A stretch of 64,000 bases of DNA from contig JAUICN010000005.1 of assembly GCA_030427835.1 (NCBI GenBank), positions 130,496-194,495 on the forward strand. Reading direction: 5' to 3'. The position numbers and the translations under genes are program-made. The first letter of the stretch is position 1; the number at the start of each line of letters is the position of its first letter. Origin of the DNA: Polyangia bacterium. GTDB lineage: Bacteria; Myxococcota_A; Polyangia; Polyangiales; JAUICN01. This document shows positions 7,950 to 64,000 of this stretch, piece after piece. The notes under the pieces were generated by a model. That model was not told the origin of the DNA. It saw nothing but the letters and a program-made list of their open reading frames with translations, and did no database searches.

Positions 7950-8010
7950 GTGAGAGGCCAACTTAGTCAGTGGGCGGTTTACCCGTCAAGGCGACCCCGT
8001 AGAACCGCCT

Positions 8011-8034
8011 GCCACATGCCACATGCCACATGCC
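8011..8034. repeat. Heptanucleotide tandem repeat gccacat x3.4 in a divergent intergenic region
   Basis: gccacatgccacatgccacatgcc read directly. Lies between the OMP gene and trmL. Confidence 0.9.
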
Positions 8035-8114
8035 GATTCGGCCCGTCTCGAAAAGATGGATTGAAAGCCAAAGGTACCGGGACCAGGAGGACCGGGTTGT
8101 GCTAGGTAGGAGCC

Positions 8115-13745: not shown

Positions 13746-13968
13746 ACCTTACGGCACGCAGCTTGCTGTGGGTGCGCAGGTATGGATCTTGTGACGACGG
13801 CGAGTTGGACACGTTTTGGATGCACCGCAGTCTTGGCAGGCCTGTTCTCGCTGGGGTGCACGACTGGCCCGGGGTCCTGAAGACTACCGAGGATCTATTT
13901 AGGGACGTGATGGAAGCCCACATCGCCACCCTTGGGGGGTGAGGACGATGAATCCCAACGGCCGCGGC

Positions 13969-14008
13969 ATTATTCTGCACATTCTACCGCGCAGATAATA
14001 TGCAGAAT
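13969..14008. promoter_or_regulatory. AT-rich inverted-repeat operator-like site (ATTATTCTGC ... GCAGATAAT a TGCAGAAT)
   Basis: Half-site ATTAT(T)CTGC occurs in both orientations. Both arms recur at 42745-42766, upstream of dnaK. Confidence 0.4.
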
Positions 14009-14062
14009 GAGTGGATGGGAGCAGGGCTTGCCTTTGGGGGCCGGGGCGGCGATGATTCGGCC

Positions 14063-16540
14063 ATGCATACTTCTTGGCGGCTTTTTGTGGGTGCAGTGGT
14101 TCTTTTTCCCCTGTCAGGGGCCTGTGATTTTGGGCTGGGGGCCTCGGGTCTTGGCGCGGGCAAGGGGGTGGCGGAGGCCTGCTCCAGCTCGGGCGACTGC
14201 CGTGAGGGGTTGAGCTGCGACTCGGCTACCAAGACATGCCAACCCACGGGGAGCACCGCGGCTGGGGGCAGTTGTACGCTCACCGCCGAATGCGCCGATG
14301 GACTCTACTGCGCTACGGAACGCACCTGTGCGACCGCGGGAGACAACGCCGAAGGCTCCTCCTGTGACAGCACCGGGGATTGCGAAGCGGGGCTTGTGTG
14401 CATGGTGGAGGGCTTTGGTTCGGTGTGCCGTGCGGGCGGGGACAGCGACCTGGGTGTGATGTGCACCGGCACCCTGGATTGCTTTGCGGGGCTTACCTGT
14501 TCTGCGCTCACTTCGTTGTGTGCCGAGCCAGACGCCACCAGCGGCACCACCACCCTCCCCGGCTTTTGGTCTGGAGAAACCTGTGGCGACGAGGACGAAC
14601 ACGCCGTGGCCTACTTCCGTGTTCCCGGAGCCCACGACGGGGACGACGAAGGGGACGGAGACAAGGATTTCTACCGCCTGCCCTTCCCCAACGACGTACG
14701 CAGAACCTCTACCGGCTTGAACATGTCAGGGCACCCCACTCCGGGCACGGTTCTCCCTGTGGATGTGATTGGCCGTTACGTGGAAGCCAGCGAAGAGGAT
14801 CTGGATGGCTTTGCCACCAACCCCGTGGTGCTGTTCCGTTTCTCCAAGCCCTACGACTGGGGCACCATTAGCGGCAACGTGCAGCTCGTGAACATCACGG
14901 CGGCGTCCTCCCAGTACAACCAGAGCTCCGGCGCCTCTTGGCTCACCACCGCAGGCTCCCTTTCTAAATACGTTTGTGAGGATTGGTTGGCGGTGCGCAC
15001 CCCCCACGGTTCACCCCTGTTGCCCGCCACCACCTACGCCTTGGTGCTTTCCAATGGCATCACACCGGAGGACGGCGGCACCTTTGCGCGGGACAGCGAC
15101 TTGACCGCCCTGCTCGATGGCACAGCCCCAAGCAACAGCCAACTGCAGGACGGTTGGAACGCCTACGCACCGCTTCGTACCTGGATTTCAGACCAAGGCG
15201 TCGACGCGGCCACCATCCTGAACGCCACGGTGTTCACCACCCAGGATCCCGAGGCACCCATCCAGGGTTTGCGGGATGCGGTGCACGCCCAGGCCATGCC
15301 CACGGTAAGCAACCTCACCCTTTGCGACGGCGTGAATACATCGCCCTGCGATGACGGAGACCAACGTGCCTGTGGATCCGTGCAAAGCGAGTACCACGAA
15401 ATCCACGGCAAGATTTCCCTTCCGATTTTCCAACAGGGTACAGCCCCCTACCTGAACCCTGAGGACGGCGGTGGTTTTGTGTTCAACACCATGGGCGTGC
15501 CCCAGGTGCAGCGTACGGAAGAGGTGTGCTTTGCGCTCACGGTTCCCAAGGCGGGCACCATGCCAAGCGCGGGTTACCCTGTGATGCTGCACGCCCACGG
15601 TACGGGAGGAAGTATGCGCAGCGGAATCAACGCGGGTCTTGCTCGCGAAATGGCTTCTGGGACGGTCGGGAGCACCACCGTGCAGGCCGTCACCATCGGT
15701 ATTGACCTACCACAACACGGGTCGCGCCGTGGCGACAGTACCGAGGATGCTTCTGTGTTGTTCTACAACTTTGCAAACCCCAGGGCCGCACGGGACAACG
15801 TGGCCCAGGGCACAGCCGACCTGATGTCTGTCATTCGTTGGGCCGGCCAGTTGAGTTTGACGGCCATGGAATCCCCCACGGGTTCGGCCATCGACCTGGA
15901 TGGAGACCATATGGTCATGTTTGCCCATTCCCAGGGCGCCACCCACGCCTCGCTCCTACTGCCGGAGGAGGACGGGCTCCAGGGCATTGTGCTCAGCGGC
16001 AATGGCGGTGACCTCACCGAGTCCCTGCTCAACAAAACCGAACCCGTAAACATTGCCGGAGTATTGCCCTTTGCCCTGCTGGATGTGGCAAGCGACGGTA
16101 GCCTTGTGGCCAAGAACTTCCACCCGGCATTGGCGCTGTTCCAGAGCTACTTTGAGCGCGTGGATCCCGTGAACGTGGCCCGGCGGTTGAACCGTTCCCC
16201 CCTTTCCACCTGGCCGGGCATGCACGTGTTGATGACCTACGGCCCGGGCGACTCCTACTCGCCGGACGCCACCATGGAGGCCTACGCGAAGGCTGCGCGC
16301 TTTGATCTTGTGCGCCCACTTAAGACGGACAATTTTGGTCTCAACGAAGTGGACGGGCCATTGAGTCTCAACGAAACCATCATGGGCACCCCGTTCACCC
16401 AGGGGATTCGCCAGTACGAGCCCGACGATGCTTCCGTGGATGGCCATTTTGTGTCCACTCGCAGCACCGATGGCCTGGCCGACGTGCTGCGCTTCATGCG
16501 GCAAATCCTTGCAAGCATCGACCCCACGATCGGTTCCTAG
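14063..16540 (+). CDS. Secreted protein: four N-terminal Cys-rich repeats plus a C-terminal alpha/beta-hydrolase (esterase/lipase-like) domain
   Basis: Signal peptide MHTSWRLFVGAVVLFPLSGAC, giving ATG 14063; the ORF track uses ATG 14000. Repeats C-x3-[DE]C-x2-GL-x-C x4 at 14180-14521. Hydrolase motifs LHAHGTGGS (oxyanion HG) and FAHSQGA (nucleophile elbow). Confidence 0.7.
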   Translation: MHTSWRLFVGAVVLFPLSGACDFGLGASGLGAGKGVAEACSSSGDCREGLSCDSATKTCQPTGSTAAGGSCTLTAECADGLYCATERTCATAGDNAEGSSCDSTGDCEAGLVCMVEGFGSVCRAGGDSDLGVMCTGTLDCFAGLTCSALTSLCAEPDATSGTTTLPGFWSGETCGDEDEHAVAYFRVPGAHDGDDEGDGDKDFYRLPFPNDVRRTSTGLNMSGHPTPGTVLPVDVIGRYVEASEEDLDGFATNPVVLFRFSKPYDWGTISGNVQLVNITAASSQYNQSSGASWLTTAGSLSKYVCEDWLAVRTPHGSPLLPATTYALVLSNGITPEDGGTFARDSDLTALLDGTAPSNSQLQDGWNAYAPLRTWISDQGVDAATILNATVFTTQDPEAPIQGLRDAVHAQAMPTVSNLTLCDGVNTSPCDDGDQRACGSVQSEYHEIHGKISLPIFQQGTAPYLNPEDGGGFVFNTMGVPQVQRTEEVCFALTVPKAGTMPSAGYPVMLHAHGTGGSMRSGINAGLAREMASGTVGSTTVQAVTIGIDLPQHGSRRGDSTEDASVLFYNFANPRAARDNVAQGTADLMSVIRWAGQLSLTAMESPTGSAIDLDGDHMVMFAHSQGATHASLLLPEEDGLQGIVLSGNGGDLTESLLNKTEPVNIAGVLPFALLDVASDGSLVAKNFHPALALFQSYFERVDPVNVARRLNRSPLSTWPGMHVLMTYGPGDSYSPDATMEAYAKAARFDLVRPLKTDNFGLNEVDGPLSLNETIMGTPFTQGIRQYEPDDASVDGHFVSTRSTDGLADVLRFMRQILASIDPTIGS

Positions 16541-42881: not shown

Positions 42882-42912
42882 AAACCAGTGCCAAAATTTC
42901 AGATCCTGAAAC

Positions 42913-42924: not shown

Positions 42925-42976
42925 CTCCGTCATGGCGTTGGTGGAAACAGAGCGAACGCGGGGCACGATGATCGCA

Positions 42977-42992
42977 TGGCATGTGAATTGCC
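42977..42992 (+). promoter_or_regulatory. Sigma-54-type -24/-12 promoter-like element (TGGCATG-tgaa-TTGCC)
   Basis: GG at 42978-79 and GC at 42990-91, 10 nt apart. The element lies 20 nt upstream of ATG 43012. Confidence 0.55.
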
Positions 42993-43011: not shown

Positions 43012-44796
43012 ATGAAATCACCACAGGACAAGTTGAGGCGCTCCCTCCTCCGTATGGGTTTCCCTTTTTCGTGGCTCCTATCTTGCGCATTCGCTACGCA
43101 ACTCACTGGCTGCGGGGCGCGCCAGGAACGCACGCACCAGAAATCGGTGGAAGCAGGGTTCGTCGACGAAGTATCGATCGCCTTCGATTGGCCGGAACTG
43201 CACCCCTGCCAGCGGAGAAGGACTATCACTCTGGGTGGAACCGAGGGCAACACTTCGCAGCGAGAGGTGGTGCCCGCTGCTTGGGTTCCTCTCGTGCTCA
43301 AGTACCGACCGAACAATGAAACTCGAACACTATTTCTAGTGTGGGCCCTGTCTGGCGGCCTAGGCAGGGAAGCGTTTGCTCGAGGGTTTCATTTGGAACG
43401 GCCCTCTCCTGAAGAGGAGCCTCCAAAGTGTGAGGGGGTCCGCAGTTCGCTGCACCAGGGAAGTCAAACGGCATCGGATTTGAATCGCCTTATTCAGCAC
43501 CTTTTGGGTGAAATGATCCTTCCGAGTGCACTGGTTGTGTGGAACGCTCCCTCCACGTACGGCAAAACCATTCCTGGGGTAGGGCACCAGTATCGTGCGC
43601 TCGAAGACGCGATCCCCAGCAGTTGGTTGAACCAACTCGACCAACCATGGTTTGAGAACTTACCGGATAGGATGCAGTTGGCATCGGACAAAGAAGACGA
43701 GACCTTAGCAACACTTCGTGGGTGGGAGGAACAATGGAAACCAACCGTAACTAAGTTAGAACATCGGCTCAGGGCGTACGCCCTAATCCGGCACTACATC
43801 GATTTGCGACGAGCACAGCTTCCCAAAACCTGGAGGGGGAAAACACCTCCGGCCCAACTATCTCAAGCCGAATACGCCGGGATGTGGATGCTTGCCGAAC
43901 TAAAAGCAAACTACAGCGCTCCAAAATATCGTAGATGGTTGGAATCGATCGGAAAATTTGATGGAAAGCATTTTTCTATCGGAAAATCATTTGAATCTAC
44001 GTGTGTTGGATTTTCTCCCCCATTCAAGGGCGTACTGTTACCGACGCGAGGTTCATTGGATGGACCGGCACCGATTCTGGAGGAGGAGTTTGCCGCCTTT
44101 TGCAGGGGTTATCAGTCCAACCTTGGCTTGAGATTCACGACCAAAGGCTCTGACAGTGCGAATGAGGTGCGGTCCCTCGCCACCGCCTCAAGCACTGGTT
44201 ACCTTCAGGACTATTTTGATCCCAGCAGGACCCCGAAGAAATATCCGTGGCACATCTCCCAAGGGCATTGGGCCCTTGGCACGCAGGTTACGCCAGTGTT
44301 CGACGGTCATGTTGCGATTCAGCCGCCTGAACCCATTCAATGTCGTTCTGGCGGGGCCTACGTGGGTGGGGCGGAGGATTCGCCACCTTGCTACCGAACG
44401 CACATCGCGTTCTTCGACCCAGGTACAAGTGCTCACCGCGGGTCGCACCCCGATTTGGTGCTCCACATCGACGTCCAGTACGATCGTAAACCCAACCCGG
44501 GTACGGACAACCCCGTGTCACCGGACGACCTCGCGGGAAACTTTTTCATCGCCTACCCGTCTCACCTCAACCCGAACAACCATTGCCCGCAAACCTTCAA
44601 CGCACCGCCGCCTGGTGAGCACCCAAACTTGGCTGAGTGCGTGGTGCAGCGGCACACCATGAACGAAGCCATCGACGACGTGGTCACCCTGCTTGGCATC
44701 CACCGCGGCCTCCCCACATCCGATGTCACCGATTCCAGCTCTGAAACCAACGTCCTCAAACTCCTTCTAGCTAGCAACCAGTACCGAAGGCGCTAG
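43012..44796 (+). CDS. Hypothetical lipoprotein (595 aa), orphan
   Basis: ATG 43012 gives MKSPQDKLRRSLLRMGFPFSWLLSCAFATQLTGC (lipobox LTGC). No family recognised. GC is visibly lower than in flanking genes. Confidence 0.65.
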   Translation: MKSPQDKLRRSLLRMGFPFSWLLSCAFATQLTGCGARQERTHQKSVEAGFVDEVSIAFDWPELHPCQRRRTITLGGTEGNTSQREVVPAAWVPLVLKYRPNNETRTLFLVWALSGGLGREAFARGFHLERPSPEEEPPKCEGVRSSLHQGSQTASDLNRLIQHLLGEMILPSALVVWNAPSTYGKTIPGVGHQYRALEDAIPSSWLNQLDQPWFENLPDRMQLASDKEDETLATLRGWEEQWKPTVTKLEHRLRAYALIRHYIDLRRAQLPKTWRGKTPPAQLSQAEYAGMWMLAELKANYSAPKYRRWLESIGKFDGKHFSIGKSFESTCVGFSPPFKGVLLPTRGSLDGPAPILEEEFAAFCRGYQSNLGLRFTTKGSDSANEVRSLATASSTGYLQDYFDPSRTPKKYPWHISQGHWALGTQVTPVFDGHVAIQPPEPIQCRSGGAYVGGAEDSPPCYRTHIAFFDPGTSAHRGSHPDLVLHIDVQYDRKPNPGTDNPVSPDDLAGNFFIAYPSHLNPNNHCPQTFNAPPPGEHPNLAECVVQRHTMNEAIDDVVTLLGIHRGLPTSDVTDSSSETNVLKLLLASNQYRRR

Positions 44797-53540: not shown

Positions 53541-53556
53541 TGGCACGATCCCTGCA
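53541..53556 (+). promoter_or_regulatory. Sigma-54-type -24/-12 promoter-like element (TGGCACG-atcc-CTGCA)
   Basis: GG at 53542-43 and GC at 53554-55, 10 nt apart. The element lies 28 nt upstream of ATG 53584. Confidence 0.55.
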
Positions 53557-53583
53557 AAACCATATCAGCAAAAGGCCCCCCCA

Positions 53584-55458
53584 ATGCCAAACCCCCCAAT
53601 TGCCCTCATAAAACTCACACGGGTCGCCCTCGCTGCGACATTTTTCACCGCCTGCCTGGGGCCCACAGACCTGAGTGAACAGATTAAGAACGTCGACTCC
53701 ATGGCCGCAGCGCCGGCACCCATGGGGATCATGGTCCTGGCAGACCCGTCTGAACTAGCTGCCCTAAATGGCGTTGGAAAACGCCCAGAGTTTTCAGCGG
53801 CGGAGTTTCATCGCCAAACCATGGAACAGGCGTTTGTTCCTGAATCCACTTCCCGGCAGTACAACCCGGAGGTCGTCCTAGTCAGCAAAGCCTGTGCAGA
53901 CCCGCAATCGCTCAAGTGCATTGCCTACGGCTTGCAGCGCTTCATGGGCATGTACCCCGAATCGGTCACCCAAGAGACCCTAAGCGAGCTCAATCGCCTG
54001 TACCACAAGCAACATCAAGCATTGACAACCGACCTCAATAGCAGCGCGCAGTACATCGCAGCCAAGTATGGAACAGCCCCACGGATGGAAGAACTTCGGG
54101 AAGAACTCGGCCGGCTCACCCTGGCGCACCACACAGGAAAGCTCGACGAGATGGCGGTGCCCTACAGATCCCTGTCCGAGCTATCGAACAACGAACCCAC
54201 CATGGACGACGTGGCCTTTTTGTTTGGCGCCATCCAGGACCTATCCAAGTTGCACGCGAAAATCCTTCGCGCCGATAGCAACGCAGAGCTTCGGGCGCTT
54301 TGGGACCTGGTGAACATCACAGGCTTTGTGATCCCCTTTGAGGCACCGGTATTGGCCGCAGCTTCTGAGGCGTGGCGATGGCTTCGTTTGACCGCAGAAC
54401 TTGCGGGTGAGCTCATTCCCCTGGGGGTCACCCAATCCATCAAGACAGGCGTCGGTCATATGGTCTACGCCACCCGGAAATCCATCAACACCCTAGGGCG
54501 CATCCGCGTCACCTGGGATCAGGAGGTCTTTCACCGCCTCCACATGGGCCTACCCATCCCCTTCAAGCTCACCCTCAAACCGGCTGCCATGGGCAGGGGC
54601 CGTTTCAGCGACGCCTACAAACGGTTTGCACAGGAGGCGCAAATGGCCTCCAGTCGTGATGATTTGATCCGTATTGCTGAAACGCACAACAACCCGATCG
54701 CAAAGGGCTCCTATTCCATCGTGGTGCCGCGAGGAAACGGCACGGTCATCAAGATTGCGACCGACAGCCGGTGGGACGGCCAGGCCGCAAGGGCACTGGA
54801 AACAGCGGTACAAGGTTTGAAGATCAGTGCTGAGATGGGCTACCGGGTTCCCGCCAAAGTCAGCAAGGTCACCCACTACCTCATGCGGGCATCCAACGGC
54901 ACGCAAACACCCGCGGCATCCATCACCATGCAAGAGATCATCTCCACCGGAAACCCCATCTACGGGGCAGGTCGCAACCCCGTGCTCGGTGCCATCCACC
55001 AGGCGTACCACCGCGGAATTCACGAAGCGCTTGTGGAGCCCCTGGCCAAGGAACTTTCACGGCGAGGTTTTGAACCCGATCTATGGCCTCGAAACACCAT
55101 ATTCGCAGGCAACTTCAAAAAGTATTTACAGCAAGTGGCCGACCTGTTTTCGAGCACCACAAACTCCCTTTGGTACTTCAAACCCACGGTCGAGTCCCCA
55201 CTTCGCAATATGGGCACGTCCACTGGGGATAGGCTCCTAAAAAATGTTCAGACCTTCGTTTCAGGAGGCCGCCTTTCGGCCGCGGAAGAAAGGTGGGTGG
55301 TGAACCAATTTGGAGATCGCTACTGGACCAACGATGCCGCTGAAATCCTTCTCAACGTCATGACGCGGGAGGTCTACGTCGCTCCCACCAACATCCCGCC
55401 AACGCTCTTCAAGGAACTCCGTGATGCCTGGGTCATCGTGGACCCTGTCGTGCCATGA
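53584..55458 (+). CDS. Lipoprotein, family B paralog 1, with a C-terminal protein-kinase-like motif set
   Basis: ATG 53584 gives MPNPPIALIKLTRVALAATFFTAC. The C-terminal region carries KGSYSIVV..GTVIKIA, ALETAV, FEPDLWPRN and VADLF motifs. The ORF-track start at 53248 lies antisense inside gluQ. Confidence 0.7.
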   Translation: MPNPPIALIKLTRVALAATFFTACLGPTDLSEQIKNVDSMAAAPAPMGIMVLADPSELAALNGVGKRPEFSAAEFHRQTMEQAFVPESTSRQYNPEVVLVSKACADPQSLKCIAYGLQRFMGMYPESVTQETLSELNRLYHKQHQALTTDLNSSAQYIAAKYGTAPRMEELREELGRLTLAHHTGKLDEMAVPYRSLSELSNNEPTMDDVAFLFGAIQDLSKLHAKILRADSNAELRALWDLVNITGFVIPFEAPVLAAASEAWRWLRLTAELAGELIPLGVTQSIKTGVGHMVYATRKSINTLGRIRVTWDQEVFHRLHMGLPIPFKLTLKPAAMGRGRFSDAYKRFAQEAQMASSRDDLIRIAETHNNPIAKGSYSIVVPRGNGTVIKIATDSRWDGQAARALETAVQGLKISAEMGYRVPAKVSKVTHYLMRASNGTQTPAASITMQEIISTGNPIYGAGRNPVLGAIHQAYHRGIHEALVEPLAKELSRRGFEPDLWPRNTIFAGNFKKYLQQVADLFSSTTNSLWYFKPTVESPLRNMGTSTGDRLLKNVQTFVSGGRLSAAEERWVVNQFGDRYWTNDAAEILLNVMTREVYVAPTNIPPTLFKELRDAWVIVDPVVP

Positions 55459-55591
55459 GTCGCGTGATCGGCTTGAGAGCATCGAGAAACCGGTCGAGTG
55501 GTCTGGGCCGCAGTGGCCACCGGGTTGCAATATGGCTCCGCCGAGCCTGTCCCTGATGGGGAAATCTTCCAAAGGTCCGTGGTTTTCCGCT

Positions 55592-55607
55592 TGGCATGAA
55601 GGGTGCT
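55592..55607 (+). promoter_or_regulatory. Sigma-54-type -24/-12 promoter-like element (TGGCATG-aagg-GTGCT)
   Basis: GG at 55593-94 and GC at 55605-06, 10 nt apart. The element lies 15 nt upstream of ATG 55622. Confidence 0.45.
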
Positions 55608-55621
55608 TGGGCATCCTTCCC

Positions 55622-57055
55622 ATGCATCAACGATTTCTGTATTTCCTTGGGAGCCTGGCCCTTGCGGTCCTTGCCGCATGCAGCCTAGGCCCCACTCCTG
55701 ACCGTTCATCCAAGGGTCATCTCTCCTCGGCGCTGCAAGACACATTGTTTGTCATGGCGAAGTTTCCAAGGTTCGGCTGCGTGGTCGATCCACAGACGGT
55801 GGTCACCCATCCCTTTCAATCGCCCGCCTTTGCGGTGCGCTGCCCCCAGCGTTCCGGGGGCCCAAGCGGCATTCAATGCAAGGGCCCCCAGGGAAACCAA
55901 AGCTGTGTGGTGGATGGCCTTTTCGCCACCTCAAGTGAGTTAGCCTCCGTGCAACGCACGCCCCAGTCCTACGAACAATGGGTAGCCCAACAGCATGCCC
56001 TAGCCAACGGGGCCCTACGGGGGTCAGGCCACGTGCCCACCAACATATTCGCCGAGGCGACTCCCGATGACGAGGGCAACCTGGAAACATGGTCCCTACT
56101 TGCCATCTACGATCCCCACGCCATGACCCTCGCCGCCCTGGAAAACGGCGAAGACATCAACGATGTTGATCTGGGTGAGGCCGAAGCGCTCGGAATGCCG
56201 TTGGAGCTAGCAGAACAACCCGGTATTCGTTGGGGTGGCGGCCTGGGATACGTGGCCATTGCAGGCTCCTCTGTACAGCTACTGAGCACCCAAGCCATCA
56301 CGTGGAGGTCCCTCCGTCACCTGGTCAAGCGAACCATCGCCAACGCCATCATGACCGCCACCCTCATGGTCGACGTGGCCACCGAACTGGTGAGCCTGGA
56401 CGGAGCCCGGGAATATCAACTGCGCCGCGGCTACCACACCGCCTCCGGCATCACACTCCCTGTGCCCCCAGAGCACCAGGTATTCCGATCAGGCACCTGG
56501 CGCGAAGTGGATCTCGCACTCGGCCCGGCCGCCATCGCCCTTACGTGGGAGCGCCTGTCTGAGCCCTCCTCCGGGTCCACTTCCGGCAAGGTACTCACTG
56601 TGGGGTTGTCGGACATCATCCAGCGGGACGGCACCTTGGTGATGTTCCCCGAGTACAGCGACAAACTTAACGCATACAAATCCAGTTTTCGGCAAGACAG
56701 GTTCGACCGCTGTGGCATGGGCTATCTCGGGGTGTCCGGTACCTGCTACCAGATGGCCGGAACAGACCACCTTCTTTGCAGTGAAGCCGCGACTGTGTTT
56801 GCCGCCGCCTGCCTTCTACTCGACACGGCGCAGGTGTGGGACCCATCCTCTAAATGCGGAACAAGCCGAAGCCTGTGCAATGGCTTCCTTGTCTTCGACA
56901 GTGTGGCGGGTCGGCACGGGCTTTTGGTGAAGACCGCCCAAAGCCCGCCCGACGTGGTGCTGCAAAATGCCGCCAATCAGTTCAATCTCACCCACATGTG
57001 CAGCAACGGCTACGAATCCTGCATGCAGCGAAAAGAAATCACAGAGATCCCCTAG
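55622..57055 (+). CDS. Lipoprotein, family A paralog 1
   Basis: MHQRFLYFLGSLALAVLAAC. Shares the GGPSGIQC and GMPLELAEQP blocks with A2/A3 and a Cys-rich C-terminal module with A2. Confidence 0.7.
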   Translation: MHQRFLYFLGSLALAVLAACSLGPTPDRSSKGHLSSALQDTLFVMAKFPRFGCVVDPQTVVTHPFQSPAFAVRCPQRSGGPSGIQCKGPQGNQSCVVDGLFATSSELASVQRTPQSYEQWVAQQHALANGALRGSGHVPTNIFAEATPDDEGNLETWSLLAIYDPHAMTLAALENGEDINDVDLGEAEALGMPLELAEQPGIRWGGGLGYVAIAGSSVQLLSTQAITWRSLRHLVKRTIANAIMTATLMVDVATELVSLDGAREYQLRRGYHTASGITLPVPPEHQVFRSGTWREVDLALGPAAIALTWERLSEPSSGSTSGKVLTVGLSDIIQRDGTLVMFPEYSDKLNAYKSSFRQDRFDRCGMGYLGVSGTCYQMAGTDHLLCSEAATVFAAACLLLDTAQVWDPSSKCGTSRSLCNGFLVFDSVAGRHGLLVKTAQSPPDVVLQNAANQFNLTHMCSNGYESCMQRKEITEIP

Positions 57056-57197
57056 ATAGATCTGCCAATCCGGAATCAATTTCGGCTTCACAGCCTGGGC
57101 GGGGGTAGCCAGTAAGTGAGTGAAGTGGGGCCTACAGCCCACAGGAATCGCAGTTCCTACCACGTGTGCATCGTGCATTTGTGGCGCGATTGTTGTG

Positions 57198-57213
57198 TGG
57201 CACGGGACCTGCT
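57198..57213 (+). promoter_or_regulatory. Sigma-54-type -24/-12 promoter-like element (TGGCACG-ggac-CTGCT)
   Basis: GG at 57199-200 and GC at 57211-12, 10 nt apart. The element lies 64 nt upstream of ATG 57277. Confidence 0.55.
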
Positions 57214-57276
57214 TTACGGGGGGGTATGTTGTACCCCACCCCCCCAAATACAAAACTGAATCACCTGGCCGAATGC

Positions 57277-58659
57277 ATGTCGTGGCTCGGCTTGCTTGCC
57301 CTTACATCAACCGCCTGTGCCGTCGCGCCTGCGAACACAGCAGAGCACGTATTCGCCAACAAGCGAGCTGTAACCAACACTACAGAGCTCTCCGTGGTCG
57401 TGGCGGCCAAGTCCCAGCGGCACGATTGCTTGCCTGCACAACACGTGCGACCCGCGGATGACCTGCACCCCACCGCTTGGTACCCTGTCGAGTGCAAGCG
57501 CGGCAACCCCGGCCCCAGTGGCGTCGATTGTCACACCCGAGGATTGGACATCTATTGCACCATCTCCAACGCGTACGTTCCTGACGACGGCTCCCCTGAA
57601 ATTAGTGAAACACAACTCACCTCTGGAACATTCAACGATTGGCTCTCTCGCCAAATCGCAAGTGCACGTAGCCATCTGAAAAGTGGGCAGGCCCTGGCAG
57701 GATCCGGCGAAGTGTTTGCCTGGGGCGGACCCCAAAAATCCCCATGGCTCCACAACAGTGTAGTTGGAAAAGCCAAGTACAGCCTCACCGTCTACAACGT
57801 CATGGCGGTGGCGGATGCCCCTGCGTTTACGGCAGCTCTGGTGAACAACCACCCAGAATACGAACTGGATGAAGCCAAAGCTCAAAAAGCAGGGATCCCA
57901 CTGGAGTGGGTGGCAGCGCCTGCGATACTCTATGGCGAGTTTGGTTTCACAGCCGTACAGGCCAGTGCGCTTGAGGCCAGCGCGGGTGGTTGGATCATGT
58001 CGGCTGAAACCCTAAGCATGCTTGCCAGGGGCACCATCGCAAGAACCGCTTCCGCCTCGTTTCAGATTCACGGCCTGCTCACCTGGCTCTTCCCACCGAA
58101 AAACGGCGCCATCGCCTACCACGTGCTCGACGCCTACACCTACGGCGACACCACCCACATCACCCCCGCCACCCCACAAGACACCATCACCTCCGGCGAC
58201 TGGGACGACGTCCTCCCCCAACTCGCCACCCACGCCCTAGAACTCACAAACGCCATCTATGCAACCTCGACGACCAACATGCTTGTTCCTGACGCAAACG
58301 GCATCGTAGCCTACCCTGAAGAATTTGCCGCTGACATCGAGGCGGCCAAAACGGAGAGCGCATCGGCGAACTGTCACCGCGGGTATCGAGGGGTACGCGA
58401 CACTTGCAACGCAACTCACGGTGGCGATCTGCAAGACGACACGCGCCAAGCCTACTGCGACTACCTGGCGGCGGGATTCTTGAAAGGCTGTCGAATGGCG
58501 CAGTCCGCAGGAAACGCCCCATTCGCCTGCCAGGCTGGTTTCTCCAGTTGCAATTTTTACAGCATGATAACGCCAACGCGAGACACGTTTTGGGAGAGCG
58601 CCCCAACAGACCCGAGAACAACTGCCATCTGTGCTGAGGGTATGAACAAGTGTCAATAA
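57277..58659 (+). CDS. Lipoprotein, family A paralog 2
   Basis: MSWLGLLALTSTAC. Colinear with A3 over about 330 aa, through VECKRGNPGPSGVDCH, KSPWLH, AGIPLEWVAAPAILYGEFGF and ASASFQIHGLL. Confidence 0.75.
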   Translation: MSWLGLLALTSTACAVAPANTAEHVFANKRAVTNTTELSVVVAAKSQRHDCLPAQHVRPADDLHPTAWYPVECKRGNPGPSGVDCHTRGLDIYCTISNAYVPDDGSPEISETQLTSGTFNDWLSRQIASARSHLKSGQALAGSGEVFAWGGPQKSPWLHNSVVGKAKYSLTVYNVMAVADAPAFTAALVNNHPEYELDEAKAQKAGIPLEWVAAPAILYGEFGFTAVQASALEASAGGWIMSAETLSMLARGTIARTASASFQIHGLLTWLFPPKNGAIAYHVLDAYTYGDTTHITPATPQDTITSGDWDDVLPQLATHALELTNAIYATSTTNMLVPDANGIVAYPEEFAADIEAAKTESASANCHRGYRGVRDTCNATHGGDLQDDTRQAYCDYLAAGFLKGCRMAQSAGNAPFACQAGFSSCNFYSMITPTRDTFWESAPTDPRTTAICAEGMNKCQ

Positions 58660-58711
58660 GCAAAAGAATCCTGTGGGCGACAGGGAGGAAGCAGCCTGCT
58701 AACACCCCCGG

Positions 58712-59482
58712 GTGCGCTCCAACCTAGATACACTTTGCGGCTGCTTTCCCACGGGCAGGCACTACCCTGGGATTGCGGATTTGATCGCCAAATCCGTAGT
58801 CAAAGTGGATGGTTTGGCGGGTTCCTACACCCCGGATCGGGTTTGGAAGCGCCTTCCCCTGGTGGTCATCGACTTTGAAACCACGGGGCTGAACCCGGAA
58901 AACGATCGTGTGTTGGAAATGGGCCTGGTCTTCTTTCGGGACGGCAAGTTTGAGGATCGCCACAACTGGCTCATCAACCCTGGCATGCCCGTTCCCAAGG
59001 AATCCAGCGACGTCCACGGCATCACCGATGAACAGCTGGCAGACGCTCCCTTCTTTGAACAAATCTTTGATGAAGTCCTGGGCCACCTCAAGGATAGGGT
59101 GCCCGTGGCCTACAACGCCCCCTTCGACCGTAAGTTCCTCCACGCCGAAGCCGCACGCTTGGGCTATGGAGGGCTAACCCAACTGGGTGATGTGCCACCT
59201 GCGCTCGACACGGAAGCGGTGTGGATCGATCCCCTGGTGTGGGTACGTGAACTGCAAAAGTTCGAGAAGGGAAAAAAGCTCACCGACGTGGCCGCCCGCA
59301 TGAACATCCCGCTGGATAACGCCCACCGCGCTTCTGGCGACGCCGAAGCCACGGGCCACGTACTCATGGCACTCGCCAAGGACATGCCCGAATCCTACGG
59401 AGAGCTCGTTCGCATCCAGGGCCGCTACAGCGCCCAGCAGGAAGCCGAGTTCGCCGCCTGGCGCGCCAAGAGAAAGGGCTAG
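58712..59482 (+). CDS. DEDDh 3'-5' exonuclease (DNA polymerase III epsilon-like)
   Basis: Exo I VVIDFETTG, Exo II YNAPFDRKFL, Exo III HRASGDAEAT. The start is uncertain: GTG 58712 or GTG 58805. Confidence 0.8.
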   Translation: MRSNLDTLCGCFPTGRHYPGIADLIAKSVVKVDGLAGSYTPDRVWKRLPLVVIDFETTGLNPENDRVLEMGLVFFRDGKFEDRHNWLINPGMPVPKESSDVHGITDEQLADAPFFEQIFDEVLGHLKDRVPVAYNAPFDRKFLHAEAARLGYGGLTQLGDVPPALDTEAVWIDPLVWVRELQKFEKGKKLTDVAARMNIPLDNAHRASGDAEATGHVLMALAKDMPESYGELVRIQGRYSAQQEAEFAAWRAKRKG

Positions 59483-59486
59483 AGCA

Positions 59487-60557
59487 TTGTCGTCCACAGC
59501 AAAGCGATCCCTTCCATGGAGACAGGGGCTCGGCCTGCCCTGGTCCCCCAAGCGAAAGATCCTCGTATTCAGCGCCCTGACCGCCGCCGCAAGTTGGGGC
59601 GTTGTACTCATGTTCACGGCCCTGGGCGGCAAGGGTGGCACACCCGCATCTGCCGCGGTCTGGAGGCTCTACACCCTTTGCCCCGCCATGATGGCCCTGC
59701 TTGTGCGGGGAGCCATTTCCCAACAGCCCCTGCTCGGCCCCCTGGGCCTTTCCCTCAAACTCAACCGCTATTGGATGGTCGCCTGGCTGCTACCCATCGG
59801 CCTCACCGCCGCATCCTGGCTGCTTAGCGGTCTCGTACCTGGAATCAGCGTTAGCACGGACATCCAAACCTTTTTGGATCATTTCCAATCCCGTGCCGGT
59901 GCGGATCCAGAGGCCTATGCCACCTTTGAAAAACAGGTGCGTGAATCCATCGCCGACGGCCCCCACCCCGCGTTTCGCATGCTGCTCCAAGCCATGGTGG
60001 CAGGCATGACCCTCAACGCGCTAACAGCCCTGGGAGAAGAACTGGGCTGGCGCGGTTTCCTTTCGCACGAACTCGCAGCCCATAAAAACGCAGCCCACGC
60101 CGCGAGCAACAAGCGCAATGCCGATCAGTCGCAAGCGGTCGGCTCTGGAAACGTGGATAGGGCGTTTTGGAACCGCTCCTGGATCGTGGGTGGCGCCTGG
60201 GGCCTCTGGTACCTGCCCTTCGCGCTCACCGGCTTTCCCTTTCCCGGTGCGCCCGTCACCAGCGCCTTCCTTCTGCCCCTGTGGTGCCTCGCCACCGGCC
60301 CCCTGTTTGCGTGGTTGCGTGTACGCAGCGGCTCCATCTTCGCCGTGGGCATCCTGCACGGAACCTGGTTCGGTCTTATTGAATTGCCCCACCTCGTCAC
60401 CCGAGTAGCAGAAGGCACCCCCGCCTGGATGAACCACCTCGCCATCGGCCCCCAAAGCCTCATCGGAATCCTCCTGGCCGCCACAGTCTCCCTCTACCTA
60501 ACCACCCGCCCCCCACCCACTCCCCAGGGCTCAGAGCACCGCACAAACGTGGCCTAG
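59487..60557 (+). CDS. CPBP-family intramembrane glutamic endopeptidase (Abi-like)
   Basis: GEELGWRGFL and VGILHG motifs with multiple TM segments. The TTG start lies 4 nt after the exonuclease stop. Confidence 0.7.
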   Translation: MSSTAKRSLPWRQGLGLPWSPKRKILVFSALTAAASWGVVLMFTALGGKGGTPASAAVWRLYTLCPAMMALLVRGAISQQPLLGPLGLSLKLNRYWMVAWLLPIGLTAASWLLSGLVPGISVSTDIQTFLDHFQSRAGADPEAYATFEKQVRESIADGPHPAFRMLLQAMVAGMTLNALTALGEELGWRGFLSHELAAHKNAAHAASNKRNADQSQAVGSGNVDRAFWNRSWIVGGAWGLWYLPFALTGFPFPGAPVTSAFLLPLWCLATGPLFAWLRVRSGSIFAVGILHGTWFGLIELPHLVTRVAEGTPAWMNHLAIGPQSLIGILLAATVSLYLTTRPPPTPQGSEHRTNVA

Positions 60558-60784
60558 GCCCCGGTTTTCAGCTCAAATTTCGCGTCAACGCGCGTCCCAC
60601 TGGGGTTCAGTCACCCCAGCCAGGTGGCGGAACCGGTTGTGTTCCAAGGAACATTCGCTGTTCCCTCAGAACGACTCAGAATCACCTTGATATCAAACGG
60701 TATTCACATTTTTGCAGAGCAATACAGGCCCGCTGTCTGGAACACTTGCTGCTCCAGTTCTTAAGAAATCACGTGCTTTTTTGA

Positions 60785-60800
60785 TGGCACGGGCTGTGCA
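60785..60800 (+). promoter_or_regulatory. Sigma-54-type -24/-12 promoter-like element (TGGCACG-ggct-GTGCA)
   Basis: GG at 60786-87 and GC at 60798-99, 10 nt apart. The element lies 41 nt upstream of ATG 60841, which has a GGAGAA SD. Confidence 0.55.
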
Positions 60801-60840: not shown

Positions 60841-62493
60841 ATGCCCAGTCAGCTCATTCACAAATCCATCGCCCTAACCACCCTAGGCCTACTCGCCTGC
60901 GGCACTCCTTCTCAAGCGAATCGTACAAAATCCACATCTCCCGGGCACAGCATGGAGTTGTCCGGTGTTGTGGTCGGAAAATCGGTACGTCACGGTTGCC
61001 GGCCAACGGAAGAGATCTTTCCTTCAGACGATGACCACACCACAAGCTGGCATGCCGTCGAATGCAAACGAAGTAATCCAGGGCCCAGTGGTGTTTCCTG
61101 TCACTCAAGTACGTTTGGAGACCGGTATTGCACCGTCGGTAATATTCATATACCGGCAGACGGAACACCCGACATCACGGAGGCTCAGTTAACGGGACAG
61201 AGCTACGACGCATGGATCGTTCGGCAAGTCAGCAAGGCCCGGAAACGATTGAGAGATGGTCAGTCCATGGCAGTACTAAGCGAGGTTTTTGCCCTTAGCG
61301 GGCCCGAAAAGTCTCCGTGGTTACACCAAGATCCAATTCGCAGAAACAAGTACAGCATTAAGATAGCCAACGTAATGGGCGTGACCGACGCGCCTGGTTT
61401 GTCTGTGGCTGTAGCCAGGAACAACGAAGATATTGAACTCGACGAACAAGAGCTAGCCCGGTCAGGCATTCCCTTGGAACTCGCAGGAGCCCCTGCTTTA
61501 TTTTGGGGCGAGTTCGGTTTTGCGACGGCCGAAGCGTCGTCGATCGTGGTTACAGCGTCGTCTGGAGTGGGTAGCATTGGTATTGAGGCGCTTAGTTTCC
61601 TAGCGAAAGGAGCAATCGCCCGTGGAGCAGCAGCATCGTTTCAGATCGCTGGGATACTTGAGTTTTTCTTCCCCATTTTAGATGACGCGGAAGCGTATTT
61701 CGTTCACGAGGTGCGGCAGATAGACGGTGTGACCTCTGTGGAACCCGCGACTCAGCAGAATACTGTGGTGTCCGGTGAATGGAGTGAGGCACAGGCGCTT
61801 CTAGTGCGTCGTACGCTGGAACTTGCAAGCGCACACTACGGAGCGGACACGCTCGATAGAGAAGCAGTGGAAAAACACCTTGCTGGTCTTGATCTTCCAG
61901 AAACAGCGCTCGATGACGCTATCCGGCTTGCTCCATTGAATGCGGATCGACTAGAGGAAATCGCAGAGACCTATGGCAAGGGTGATGGATCGAGCATCTG
62001 TGAAGTCGTCGGTGCTGAAAACAGGGCAGAAGGAAGTGCCAACAACCACGTGATGTGTGAAAGAGGTCGAAAAGCCATTAGACCATCCGCTTCTGCCAGC
62101 TATTCCATGATGACCCTGCGGGCTAGAAATGGAAATCCCACACGCTTTATTATGGGCAAACTCCATTACACATATGGACCACGCCGTCTTCTGACTCAGT
62201 TCCCAGTGCCCATGGGCGATCGTCTGAGCGCCGGTGCCCATGGAGACTATTCGGTGACGCCAGGATTCCTACGAAGTCGAACAACAGACGTCCTTGTTGC
62301 CTTGGATGTGATTCACGCAGTGTACTCAGCCGCAAAGTGCCGCGAGCATCTGACCTACATGGTACCGATCTCCGCTACGGGTGCTCGATTCAGCTCGTTT
62401 GGTGATAGCTATCTTGTACAGTTCCCATCAGGTGGAAGCGTTCAGCTTGAAAAGTGCCTACCGAATACCCTGTCTGATGTCGGTCGTCTGTAG
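60841..62493 (+). CDS. Lipoprotein, family A paralog 3, with a distinct C-terminal module
   Basis: MPSQLIHKSIALTTLGLLAC. Homologous to A2 up to about nt 61850, then about 215 aa unrelated to A1 or A2. GC is visibly lower. Confidence 0.75.
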   Translation: MPSQLIHKSIALTTLGLLACGTPSQANRTKSTSPGHSMELSGVVVGKSVRHGCRPTEEIFPSDDDHTTSWHAVECKRSNPGPSGVSCHSSTFGDRYCTVGNIHIPADGTPDITEAQLTGQSYDAWIVRQVSKARKRLRDGQSMAVLSEVFALSGPEKSPWLHQDPIRRNKYSIKIANVMGVTDAPGLSVAVARNNEDIELDEQELARSGIPLELAGAPALFWGEFGFATAEASSIVVTASSGVGSIGIEALSFLAKGAIARGAAASFQIAGILEFFFPILDDAEAYFVHEVRQIDGVTSVEPATQQNTVVSGEWSEAQALLVRRTLELASAHYGADTLDREAVEKHLAGLDLPETALDDAIRLAPLNADRLEEIAETYGKGDGSSICEVVGAENRAEGSANNHVMCERGRKAIRPSASASYSMMTLRARNGNPTRFIMGKLHYTYGPRRLLTQFPVPMGDRLSAGAHGDYSVTPGFLRSRTTDVLVALDVIHAVYSAAKCREHLTYMVPISATGARFSSFGDSYLVQFPSGGSVQLEKCLPNTLSDVGRL

Positions 62494-62617
62494 TTGTTGT
62501 CCATCGAACCACCAGGCGCTTCTGCGAACAATGCGGTATTCCGGGCGCCTGTTTCCGGTTGAGCAAACCCGCTGTGCTATTTGATGGAACTAGTCGAGCG
62601 TTCATAGTGGTGAGCTG

Positions 62618-64000
62618 TTGTACCGTCTAAGCAACATCGCTCTGGTTCGCGCAACCCTTTTGGGATGCATGTGCCTACTCGCAGCATGCAGTGCGCCTGA
62701 CGCAGCAAGCATCAAGCGCACCACAAATCAGGCGCCCACGTCCGTTCAGGTTTTGTACAGTCCGGAGCAGCTTGCTCAGGTTCAGAAGCTGCAGGAGGAA
62801 ATGCGGGATCCGAACTCCCTGTTCTACCAGAAGACAACGCAGCTCCATGCAACTGCAGCCGTGCACCACCAATACAGCAACCAACACTTTGCCGCCCCGG
62901 ACGCCACCCAAACCCAACCCGTGTTCATTCCAAGCGAGCTTTCCAGGGCATGCAAAAACCCGCTCACAGGAAAATGCACCGCGGCACGCCTGAAAGTGCA
63001 GTTCGGCATGGAGCACATCGATGCTGGTACCGTCGTCGCGTTGGAGTCTGCGTACAACATCACTCGAGCGGATGTCGGAGCCTTTGTGGGCGTCAGAGAG
63101 GCGAAGTCCTACGGGTATTCCCTGCCCAATATGCTCGCCAACGGCGACATGGTGAAACTGCTCAAGGAATACGAGGCGATCGTCACTCAACACAGCCAGG
63201 GAAAGCTGTACAACCAACCTTTGCTCGAGCAAACCGCACATCAACTCGCCATGATCGAACGGGGCGAATATCTCTTGGCCGACGCCCATTTCCACCTGCA
63301 CGCCATCGAAGAGCTTCTCGCCTTCCGATCCCGGGTGGATTCCGCGTGGTCCTGGCGCCACGTGTCTGCCGTGGGTGAGGCACTCTTGCTTGCAGGCTGG
63401 GTGTTGCCCTACCACCTGATCCTTTTCGAGGCCTTTACTTCCATCCCCCTGGGTGCCGCCATCACGGCTGGCACTCGACACGGATTGCACTTGATTTCCC
63501 TGGGTACCTCCAGGGTTGTTACCGCCGCAGGCCAGGTAGTCCAAAAGCAGGTCTACGCCACCCTCCGCTATCTCAAGAACACAGGTGTTGTACGTTTGCT
63601 CAACGGCACCGGGCGCCTTCGAATCGTATTCAATCCAGCCGCCCTCTCCCGCATCTATGTCGGCGTTCCTGGTTCGCCCCTTAGGTTCGTGGTCGATCAT
63701 GTCGCCGATGTTCAAGTGGGCCCCAGGGTGTTCACCGCACTATCCGCGTTGGATGATGTAGCCTTTCGCAGCTTTGACGAAGTTCTCCTGTGGTTGGAAA
63801 GCCAACTCGACAACACCGTTAAGGTACTGGGTACCGATCGCCGCATCGGCGCCGCCACCCTCCGCATCACGGACGATGGTGCCTTTCTCATCCTAGGTAG
63901 GGATGCTGCCGCTTCCGGTAAGATTCTGAGTTCCCTAGAATCCGCGGCACCCAAACTCAAGCTGGGAAAACCTATTGCCACCATACTTTCAAACGGTGCA
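62618..64000 (+). CDS. Lipoprotein, family B paralog 2, 3'-truncated by the window edge (not in the ORF track)
   Basis: The frame is open from the stop at 62591-93 to nt 64000. TTG 62618 gives MYRLSNIALVRATLLGCMCLLAAC. Shares SRACKNPLTGKC, AWSW and VYATLRYLKNTG blocks with 53584-55458. Confidence 0.65.
   Translation, partial: MYRLSNIALVRATLLGCMCLLAACSAPDAASIKRTTNQAPTSVQVLYSPEQLAQVQKLQEEMRDPNSLFYQKTTQLHATAAVHHQYSNQHFAAPDATQTQPVFIPSELSRACKNPLTGKCTAARLKVQFGMEHIDAGTVVALESAYNITRADVGAFVGVREAKSYGYSLPNMLANGDMVKLLKEYEAIVTQHSQGKLYNQPLLEQTAHQLAMIERGEYLLADAHFHLHAIEELLAFRSRVDSAWSWRHVSAVGEALLLAGWVLPYHLILFEAFTSIPLGAAITAGTRHGLHLISLGTSRVVTAAGQVVQKQVYATLRYLKNTGVVRLLNGTGRLRIVFNPAALSRIYVGVPGSPLRFVVDHVADVQVGPRVFTALSALDDVAFRSFDEVLLWLESQLDNTVKVLGTDRRIGAATLRITDDGAFLILGRDAAASGKILSSLESAAPKLKLGKPIATILSNGA

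Follow-up and report, generated by a model that had tools for sequence, protein, structure and literature searches.

Candidate Sigma-54-Type -24/-12 Promoter Elements in Front of Orphan Lipoprotein Genes of a Polyangia Bacterium

Introduction

Does each gene in an array of orphan lipoprotein genes possess its own sigma-54-type promoter, and does such an element belong to the array or to the lipoprotein genes of the genome at large? The question is raised by a stretch of 64,000 nucleotides (nt) of DNA from a Polyangia bacterium (assembly GCA_030427835.1, contig JAUICN010000005.1), hereafter called the window, where the five genes of such an array, named B1, A1, A2, A3 and B2, encode proteins that all begin with a signal peptide closed by a lipobox cysteine. 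One protein family comprises A1, A2 and A3 (43-46% identity between A2 and A3, 23% between A1 and A2), and B1 and B2, with 24% identity, make up a second one. In an initial annotation of the window, every gene of this array was considered to have a near-consensus -24/-12 element of its own. Elements of this type occur in front of four of the five array genes and recur at other lipoprotein gene starts of the same genome, up to a total of twelve sites. With the B2 site excluded, these twelve elements are interpreted here as functional sigma-54 promoters, a reading to which a rough probability of 0.78 is attached. They would be additions to a known promoter class, unusual in their target set and in their geometry.

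Sequences and Scoring

The sequence available from this genome comprises the window, a segment running 8.5 kb past it (L001) and 15 kb of another contig (L082), i.e., 87.5 kb; the 0.7 kb to the left of the window (L083, in which position 2682 corresponds to window position 1962) were used in the census of lipoprotein gene starts only. The closest matches of the UvrB protein belong to metagenome-assembled genomes of Polyangia/Sandaracinaceae, at 71% identity, followed by other Myxococcota, and the host genome looks Myxococcota-like, i.e., it would belong to a phylum rich in sigma-54 activators. The comparison set consists of 1.32 Mb from 80 other Myxococcota, made of uvrB neighbourhoods rather than of random genome samples.

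Sites were scored against the consensus TGGCACG-N4-TTGCW (TGGCACGNNNNTTGCW), which was fixed beforehand, with 12 specified positions and with GG and GC required intact; the pattern used in the initial annotation was a post hoc one, derived from the sites themselves. The sigma-54 consensus YTGGCACGrNNNTTGCW rests on 186 promoters (Barrios et al. 1999, as cited in PMC5243855). Lipoprotein signal peptides were called by inspection and with a regular expression.

The Elements of the Lipoprotein Gene Array

Upon re-reading of the window, the four sites previously reported in front of B1, A1, A2 and A3 (Table 1) are found where they had been placed, all on the plus strand and all with exactly 10 nt from GG to GC. 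The B1 element sits in the 51-nt gap that separates B1 from a divergent GluQ-tRNA synthetase gene (start 53532, minus strand), the A2 element lies just downstream of a terminator-like hairpin (57170-57190), and the 30-nt leader predicted from the A3 element contains a GGAG ribosome-binding site. Depending on the gene, the C of the -12 block precedes the start codon by 29 nt (B1), 16 nt (A1), 14 nt (A2) or 42 nt (A3). No sigma-54-like site was seen before the RNase T-family exonuclease or Rce1-like protease genes that interrupt the array, and no sigma-70 promoter of the Escherichia coli type was found in the array intergenic gaps.

The post hoc pattern has 4 matches in the window against 0.25 expected, a count that none of 100 shuffles reaches. 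With the fixed consensus, 4 sites carry at most one mismatch, against 0.72 expected and a maximum of 2 in 60 first-order Markov simulations, and 15 sites carry at most two mismatches, against 7.0 +/- 2.5. According to a rough a-priori weighting, the sites of B1, A2 and A3 rank as the top three of the window and the A1 site as the fifth. The additional claim that no other TGGCAC hexamer of the window is followed by a correctly spaced GC has to be abandoned, since those at 42893 and 12674, both on the minus strand, are followed by one too; these two sites lack the T before the GC and are located within genes.

The idea that each gene of the array has its own element is upheld for B1, A1, A2 and A3, four of the five genes, and has to be given up for B2, where the weak fifth site at 62585 is not significant. 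Scored with a matrix derived from the good sites, it stays under the cut-off, and it is indistinguishable from the 975 GG-N10-GC sites of the window. It has TTTGATGG-AC in common with the A3 site and may represent a decayed copy. Because no terminator was found in the 124-nt gap that precedes it, B2 is probably read through from the predicted A3 promoter.

Association of the Elements with Lipoprotein Gene Starts

The predicted element pattern is a property of lipoprotein genes across the genome and not of the array specifically. All seven sites with at most one mismatch found in the 87.5 kb lie 14-42 nt upstream of an open reading frame (ORF) that opens with a lipoprotein signal peptide. In total, twelve sites precede lipoprotein genes, which belong to at least seven families without detectable mutual similarity and are distributed over three contigs; for none of these families was a homologue detected outside this genome. 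The initial annotation had suggested looking for an enrichment in front of lipoprotein genes, and such an enrichment does exist within the 87.5 kb and the adjoining 0.7 kb of L083: of about 18 lipoprotein-type starts, 11 have a site with at most two mismatches, compared to a single one among about 55 other genes (p = 1e-7, Fisher test). The number of coincidences expected from the background density of sites is 0.045 (P ~4e-23). The sole non-lipoprotein gene with a candidate site encodes a PilZ-domain protein (L082 1104-1119, plus strand, TGGCGCGGGCGTCGCT, 2 mismatches; its ATG, at 1135, follows the -12 C by 17 nt), and a matrix trained on the twelve sites detected no further convincing ones.

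With regard to the encoded proteins, the charged n-region, the hydrophobic h-region and the lipobox cysteine of lipoprotein precursors are present, several of the -3 residues being atypical. The lipobox residues read FFTAC in B1, LAAC in A1, STAC in A2, LLAC in A3, LAAC in B2 and GAGC in A4, a fourth A-family protein described below, and VGGC in C1, LTGC in D, VFGC in E, PVGC in F, MVGC in G and VAGC in H, which are encoded by the other motif-associated genes listed in Table 1.

An exhaustive HMMER search through 1.84e9 cluster representatives with the A-family profile retrieved only A1-A3 and one additional protein, P0005 (A4, MKRMSLGSFVLLILLGAGC…), which is encoded at L082 6281-7801, in the same sample (ERR3428547) and on a different contig. 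The gene is preceded at L082 6250 by TGGCACGATGGTTGCT, which shows 0 mismatches to the fixed consensus and has its -12 C 17 nt before the signal-peptide ATG. Since only protein similarity had led to P0005, its site confirms independently that motif and gene are linked. Moreover, A1 and A4 have diverged to 23-28% protein identity yet have kept near-perfect sites, which implies selection on the motif. The A4 gene adjoins a PAS/HisKA sensor kinase gene.

These data also bear on the scarcely credible explanation that the sites are functionless, having arisen either by chance or through the copying of sequence during gene duplications. The relatedness of the A2 and A3 paralogs and the TTTGATGG-AC shared by the upstream regions of A3 and B2 would speak for copying, but chance is excluded by the shuffles and simulations, the near-perfect sites of A1 and A4 outlasted the divergence of the proteins, and the at least seven unrelated families are spread over three contigs. 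A promoter copied together with its duplicated gene was considered and rejected, as flanks and spacers are unrelated from site to site and only A3 and B2 have a short sequence in common.

Conserved Positions and Distance to the Start Codon

At all twelve sites, GG (-24) and GC (-12) are exactly 10 nt apart. The first block consists of T (8/12), G, G, C (9), A (12), C (9) or T (3) and G (10), and the second one of T (11), G, C and either T (7) or A (3), whereas the four-base spacer and both flanks are free in a motif-anchored alignment of the twelve sites. The extended consensus TGGCACG-N4-TTGCW is matched with 0-3 mismatches: none at one site, one at six sites, two at four and three at the remaining one. 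The motif is non-palindromic and, because its reading frame within the upstream ORF extensions varies among all three possibilities, it does not correspond to a coded peptide.

The distances from the -12 C to the start codon amount to 13, 14, 14, 14, 16, 16, 17, 18, 21, 22, 29 and 42 nt; none is shorter than 13 nt, and ten of the twelve are comprised within 13-22 nt (p = 1e-6 under a uniform model). Sigma-54 promoters have their +1 position 12 nt past the C of GC, and the leaders predicted on this basis would measure 1, 2, 2, 2, 4, 4, 5, 6, 9, 10, 17 (B1) and 30 (A3) nt. Because the start codon follows the -12 C by 13-22 nt, the leaders of ten of the twelve genes would extend over ~1-10 nt, with no room for a Shine-Dalgarno sequence, and A3 is the only gene with ample leader room. 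The housekeeping genes in which a Pfam domain fixes the position of the start (SOD, GMC oxidoreductase, thiolase, 3-hydroxyacyl-CoA dehydrogenase, Lpd, SpoU and TrxR) exhibit clear GGAG-type sites. The lipoprotein genes would thus constitute a distinct expression class, translated from leaderless or near-leaderless mRNAs.

The proximity to the start codon at ten of the twelve genes, together with the strict tie to signal-peptide ORFs, would also suit an RNA element, i.e., transcripts beginning further upstream and carrying the motif in their 5'-untranslated region as a signal, e.g., for translation control or for the membrane targeting of lipoprotein mRNAs. Two of the twelve regions do fold better than shuffles (A1 with z = -2.6 and A4 with z = -4.5), but the ten others are devoid of any stable or shared fold (z from -1.5 to +1.8), no Rfam family matches, and no ribosome-binding site occurs between the motif and the start codon, apart from the GGAG of A3. 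In addition, two short blocks framing a free spacer represent a protein-DNA recognition pattern, which here equals the sigma-54 consensus, and little credence is given to the RNA element.

Proposed Reading of the Elements by Sigma-54 RNA Polymerase

The reading of these sites as sigma-54-type promoters, already put forward for the array, finds support in the match to the consensus, the co-orientation of elements and genes, the placement of the start codons, the recurrence before unrelated lipoprotein genes and the A4 prediction. According to this reading, RNA polymerase containing sigma-54 would bind GG (-24) and GC (-12) as a closed and silent complex. The opening of this complex, at the expense of adenosine triphosphate (ATP), would be due to an AAA+ enhancer-binding protein whose gene lies in another part of the genome. 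Transcription would begin ~12 nt past the C of GC and would produce, except for A3 and B1, leaderless or near-leaderless mRNAs. The products, predicted to be lipoprotein precursors of the Sec/Lgt/LspA type belonging to lineage-restricted families, would form a surface protein set placed under one tight, signal-dependent switch.

Several points weigh against this reading. Neither an rpoN gene nor a gene for an enhancer-binding protein was found within the 88 kb of the window, L001 and L082; for the window, this agrees with the earlier statement that no such activator gene is visible, since no GAFTGA motif occurs in the six frames and no Sigma54_activat domain among the ORFs scanned. No k-mer (8-10-mers) or dyad is shared above random controls within the 220-250 bp upstream of the twelve sites. 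A density of twelve promoters per 88 kb would be far above that in the uvrB neighbourhoods of the 80 other Myxococcota, where sites occur at chance level over 1.32 Mb, and we know of no regulon that large. Orthologous loci suitable for phylogenetic footprinting were not found in the homologue searches. Finally, leaders of 1-6 nt are unusual for sigma-54 promoters, and the gene at L082 14521 would begin with a GTG located just 2 nt from the 5' end.

To our knowledge, sigma-54 promoters do not necessarily have an activator gene next to them or an upstream site in common. Judging from the phylum and from four activator genes with intact GAFTGA identified at uvrB loci of relatives, rpoN and an activator are presumably present elsewhere in the genome. 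Because no shared upstream activator site was found, the activator would be either plural or enhancer-independent.

The lack of rpoN, of an activator gene and of a common enhancer-like site in the 88 kb, as well as a site density and an exclusive lipoprotein tie that are atypical for sigma-54, could also indicate that a real, selected DNA signal for lipoprotein genes is read by a lineage-specific transcription factor or by an unusual sigma factor. Such a reader is unlikely, as the blocks, their order, the 10-nt spacing and the purine preference after CACG all match the independent sigma-54 consensus; the non-palindromic motif is unlike most transcription-factor sites, the 5-6 nt between the blocks fit no -35/-10 architecture of the sigma-70 family, and a start site at C+12 would account for the fact that no start codon comes closer than 13 nt.

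The same missing enhancer sites and nearby activator, along with the overlap of the site with the usual region of the ribosome-binding site, would be compatible with sites that bind the sigma-54 holoenzyme and remain mostly silent or repressive, the closed complex acting as a roadblock at the 5' end of the gene. This is quite improbable, because genes that have kept long intact ORFs and signal peptides need some means of expression, and no alternative promoter is visible in the short gaps, e.g., the 51 nt in front of B1.

The interpretation as functional sigma-54 promoters being preferred, the start sites would lie at the predicted positions, the mRNAs would be translated with hardly any leader and the genes would be co-regulated. 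A broader proposal is advanced only tentatively and must be regarded as rather doubtful: in this Myxococcota lineage, sigma-54 might have become the factor in charge of most of the lipoproteome, producing leaderless or near-leaderless mRNAs under a global activator independent of enhancer sites, as one ATP-dependent switch by which fast-evolving orphan lipoproteins would remodel the cell surface. If the frequency of 12 sites per 88 kb holds, there would be hundreds of promoters genome-wide. Independently of this broader proposal, if the twelve sites function as predicted, no sigma-54 regulon described so far would act directly on lipoprotein genes at such a density, and the genome would offer a rare case of sigma-54 promoters giving leaderless or near-leaderless mRNAs. 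This would point to a coordinated, tightly gated surface change in an uncultured myxobacterial lineage, brought about by proteins without counterpart among 5.8 billion catalogued sequences.

Motif-Associated Genes and Their Annotated Starts

The coordinates of the elements and genes are collected in Table 1.

Table 1. Sigma-54-type elements, lipoprotein genes and interrupting genes; positions refer to the window unless L001 or L082 is named, and the C of the GC block is designated -12 C.
Feature	Position	Strand	Description
Element before B1	53541..53556	+	TGGCACGATCCCTGCA; 1 mismatch; predicted start site ~53567
B1	53584..55458	+	ATG 53584; 624-aa orphan lipoprotein; signal peptide ...AATFFTAC
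Element before A1	55592..55607	+	TGGCATGAAGGGTGCT; 2 mismatches; predicted start site ~55618, 4 nt 5' of ATG
A1	55622..57055	+	ATG 55622; 477-aa orphan lipoprotein (…LAVLAAC)
Element before A2	57198..57213	+	TGGCACGGGACCTGCT; 1 mismatch; predicted start site ~57224, 2 nt 5' of ATG
A2	57226..58659	+	ATG 57226; 477-aa orphan lipoprotein (…LALTSTAC)
RNase T-family exonuclease gene and Rce1-like CAAX protease gene	58712..60557	+	Unrelated genes interrupting the array
Element before A3	60785..60800	+	TGGCACGGGCTGTGCA; 1 mismatch; predicted start site ~60811
A3	60841..62493	+	ATG 60841; 550-aa orphan lipoprotein (…TLGLLAC)
Weak fifth site before B2	62585..62600	+	TGGAACTAGTCGAGCG; 5 mismatches
B2	62618..64000	+	TTG 62618; orphan lipoprotein (…CMCLLAAC); runs off the window, complete in L001
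Element before C1	10737..10752	+	GGGTACGCTTCTTGCT; 2 mismatches; -12 C 22 nt before ATG 10773
C1 and C2	10773..13745	+	Paralogous orphan lipoprotein genes, third family; 25% identical; 6 nt between them
Element before 32-aa ORF	13752..13767	+	CGGCACGCAGCTTGCT; 1 mismatch
32-aa ORF	13782..13880	+	MDLVTTASWTRFGCTAVLAGLFSLGCTTGPGS, then stop; lipoprotein signal peptide plus 6 residues (…LFSLGC TTGPGS, then stop); starts 16 nt after -12 C
Element before D	42977..42992	+	TGGCATGTGAATTGCC; 2 mismatches; -12 C 21 nt before ATG 43012
D	43012..44796	+	594-aa orphan lipoprotein (MKSPQDKLRR…QLTGC)
Site before E	L082 14549	-	AGGCACGATCCTTGCT; 1 mismatch; leads to 368-aa protein (…QVFGC)
Site before F	L082 4033	-	2 mismatches; leads to in-frame ATG upstream of the called start, giving MRPQHNSPSLYLPALLLLMSFILPVGC
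Site before G	L001 17098	-	TGGTACGAGACTTGCT; 1 mismatch; leads to 449-aa ORF (…VMVGC)
Site before H	L001 17843		AGGCATGTTTTGTGCA; 3 mismatches; H starts at 17871

Owing to the short distance that separates them, C1 and C2 probably form one operon. The 32-aa ORF that follows them is probably what remains of a lipoprotein gene after decay, with its predicted promoter preserved. The next gene (14000-16540, 846 aa, cysteine-rich) also encodes a lipoprotein with its own signal peptide. H (L001 17871-19325) is weakly A-like, with 29% identity over 93 aa (E = 8e-5).

Six of the lipoprotein genes, namely A1, A4, B2, D, F and G, have wrong or missing starts in the public annotation. The calls are over-extended for A1 (55424 versus 55622, i.e., 198 nt too far upstream) and A4 (L082 6224 versus 6281) and truncated for B2 (62669 versus 62618) and F (L082 3952 versus 4006), G (449-aa ORF, L001 15717-17066) is split into two small genes, and the start coordinates of D are 42976 versus 43012, the longest ORF beginning at 42976, upstream of the predicted start site. 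Such errors fit a failure of Shine-Dalgarno-based gene callers on genes predicted to be leaderless, and the motif could be used for the correction of misannotated lipoprotein starts.

The trinucleotide ATG is preceded by four C (ccccATG) at many starts, e.g., at window positions 1962, 10773, 39660 (minus strand), 44888 and 60841 and at L082 4006 (minus strand), among motif-associated lipoprotein genes and some housekeeping genes alike, and may constitute a lineage-specific context for translation initiation. G/C tracts are located near the starts of B1 (C7 at 53576-53582, 2 nt before the ATG, and C6 at 53592-53597, in codons 3-5) and A2 (G7 at 57218-57224, between the -12 element and the ATG, and C7 at 57239-57245), and 4 of the 15 tracts of at least 7 nt in the sequence scanned occur at the 5' ends of lipoprotein genes. 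Slipped-strand phase variation of surface lipoproteins is a possible consequence, and homopolymer tracts at some 5' ends could add such variation to the proposed switch. The first gene of the window is split at L083 174-290 by a G9 homopolymer within the region coding for its signal peptide: the ATG at L083 174 leads to MRNFPWCARSLVTSLLLLSAGGGC… and then to a stop codon, the main frame continues as …GGGVALLGCKSDSS…, and a change of one G would join both frames, so that either an assembly error or phase variation would account for the split. No sigma-54-like site was found upstream of this gene. A tandem repeat, (GGCATGT)x3, occurs at ~8007-8035 of the window (minus strand), in the intergenic region upstream of the ORF 6783-7961 (minus strand); it creates overlapping TGGCATG half-motifs with a poor -12 block.

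Orphan Status and Distribution in Relatives

Word-indexed searches through 5.8e9 proteins with A3, P0005 and a B-family profile returned only the queries, and the A-family profile matched neither genome contigs nor metagenome contigs, so that the A and B families have no detectable homologue outside this genome. The 80 uvrB loci of other Myxococcota exhibit no synteny and no homologues, nor do homologues occur at 52 GluQRS loci from metagenomes, at most 55% identical. Pfam and NCBIfam gave no match for any lipoprotein scanned, the profile searches of the PDB were empty, and the AlphaFold models of A2 and B1 (predicted local distance difference test, pLDDT, of 40 and 34, respectively) are of insufficient quality for fold searches. 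In its C-terminal half (window 54680-54760, residues ~370-395), B1 contains KGSYSIVVPRGNGTVIKIATD, which is reminiscent of a kinase-like glycine-rich loop followed by VxK; it receives no support from Pfam, NCBIfam, the PDB profile search or the low-confidence structure model.

In the 1.32 Mb of uvrB neighbourhoods, 13 sites with at most one mismatch occur, i.e., at chance density, one of them before a lipoprotein gene, and the motif is present at only one or two of 125 lipoprotein candidates. The one with at most one mismatch is L051 13529 (plus strand, TGGCACGACATCTGCT), with the -12 C 14 nt before a lipoprotein ATG; a sigma-54-like site is likewise found before a lipoprotein gene at L071 16904 (minus strand, TGGCACACACCTCGCA), where this distance amounts to 17 nt. 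They indicate that the architecture is not unique to this genome, occurs sporadically elsewhere and is greatly expanded here. A link between activator and target in L071 was considered and discarded, the activator gene and the motif-bearing lipoprotein gene being 12 kb apart.

Comparison with Known Sigma-54 Systems

The canonical -24/-12 type is represented by glnAp2 of E. coli. The elements described here resemble canonical sigma-54 promoters in the 10-nt spacing between GG and GC, the TGGCACG and TTGCW blocks, the co-orientation with the gene and a start codon placed past the predicted start site. They differ from them in the predicted leaders of ~1-10 nt at 10 of 12 sites, in targets that are almost exclusively lipoprotein genes, and in that no enhancer site or adjacent activator gene was found. 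In the searchable literature, no description was found of direct -24/-12 elements serving a dozen orphan lipoprotein genes of unrelated families in a stretch of 88 kb, or of a near-leaderless spacing.

Among the Myxococcota, sigma-54 is vital to Myxococcus xanthus, which possesses ~53 enhancer-binding proteins (PMC3162934; Keseler & Kaiser 1997 and Jakobsen et al. 2004, as cited there and in PMC12754779), and promoters of the sigma-54 type are conserved across the phylum, e.g., those of the PexR-dependent ahpC/katB genes (PMC12754779). The present genome would belong to the same phylum according to UvrB similarity, its relatives have GAFTGA-containing enhancer-binding proteins, and a heavy use of sigma-54 is normal in this phylum. 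In contrast, the known myxobacterial promoters have defined upstream activator sites and serve genes for development, motility and stress. In this respect, FlgR of Helicobacter pylori, cited in PMC3162934 as an enhancer-independent activator of sigma-54, offers a possible model: an activator of this type would explain many sigma-54 promoters without any common upstream site, a suggestion that follows from the negative motif search.

A connection between sigma-54 and lipoproteins has precedents outside the Myxococcota. A proposal exists that sigma-54 controls the cell exterior, including lipoproteins (PMC3162934), and in Borrelia burgdorferi, the Rrp2-RpoN-RpoS pathway places the outer-surface lipoproteins as a group under the government of sigma-54 (PMC3320556, PMC3162934). 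The control is indirect in Borrelia, where a single sigma-54 promoter is located at rpoS and RpoS transcribes the lipoprotein genes, whereas each gene would have its own -24/-12 element here. A more direct parallel is found in Leptospira interrogans, in which sigma-54 and EbpA bind the -24/-12 regions of the putative lipoprotein genes LIC12503 and LIC11935, the regulon also comprising amtB (PMC5243855). Leptospira belongs to another phylum and has three such promoters per genome and two activators, compared to 12 sites in 88 kb here, but it shares with the present genome the -24/-12 sites located directly upstream of lipoprotein genes, and very short leaders are common in Leptospira.

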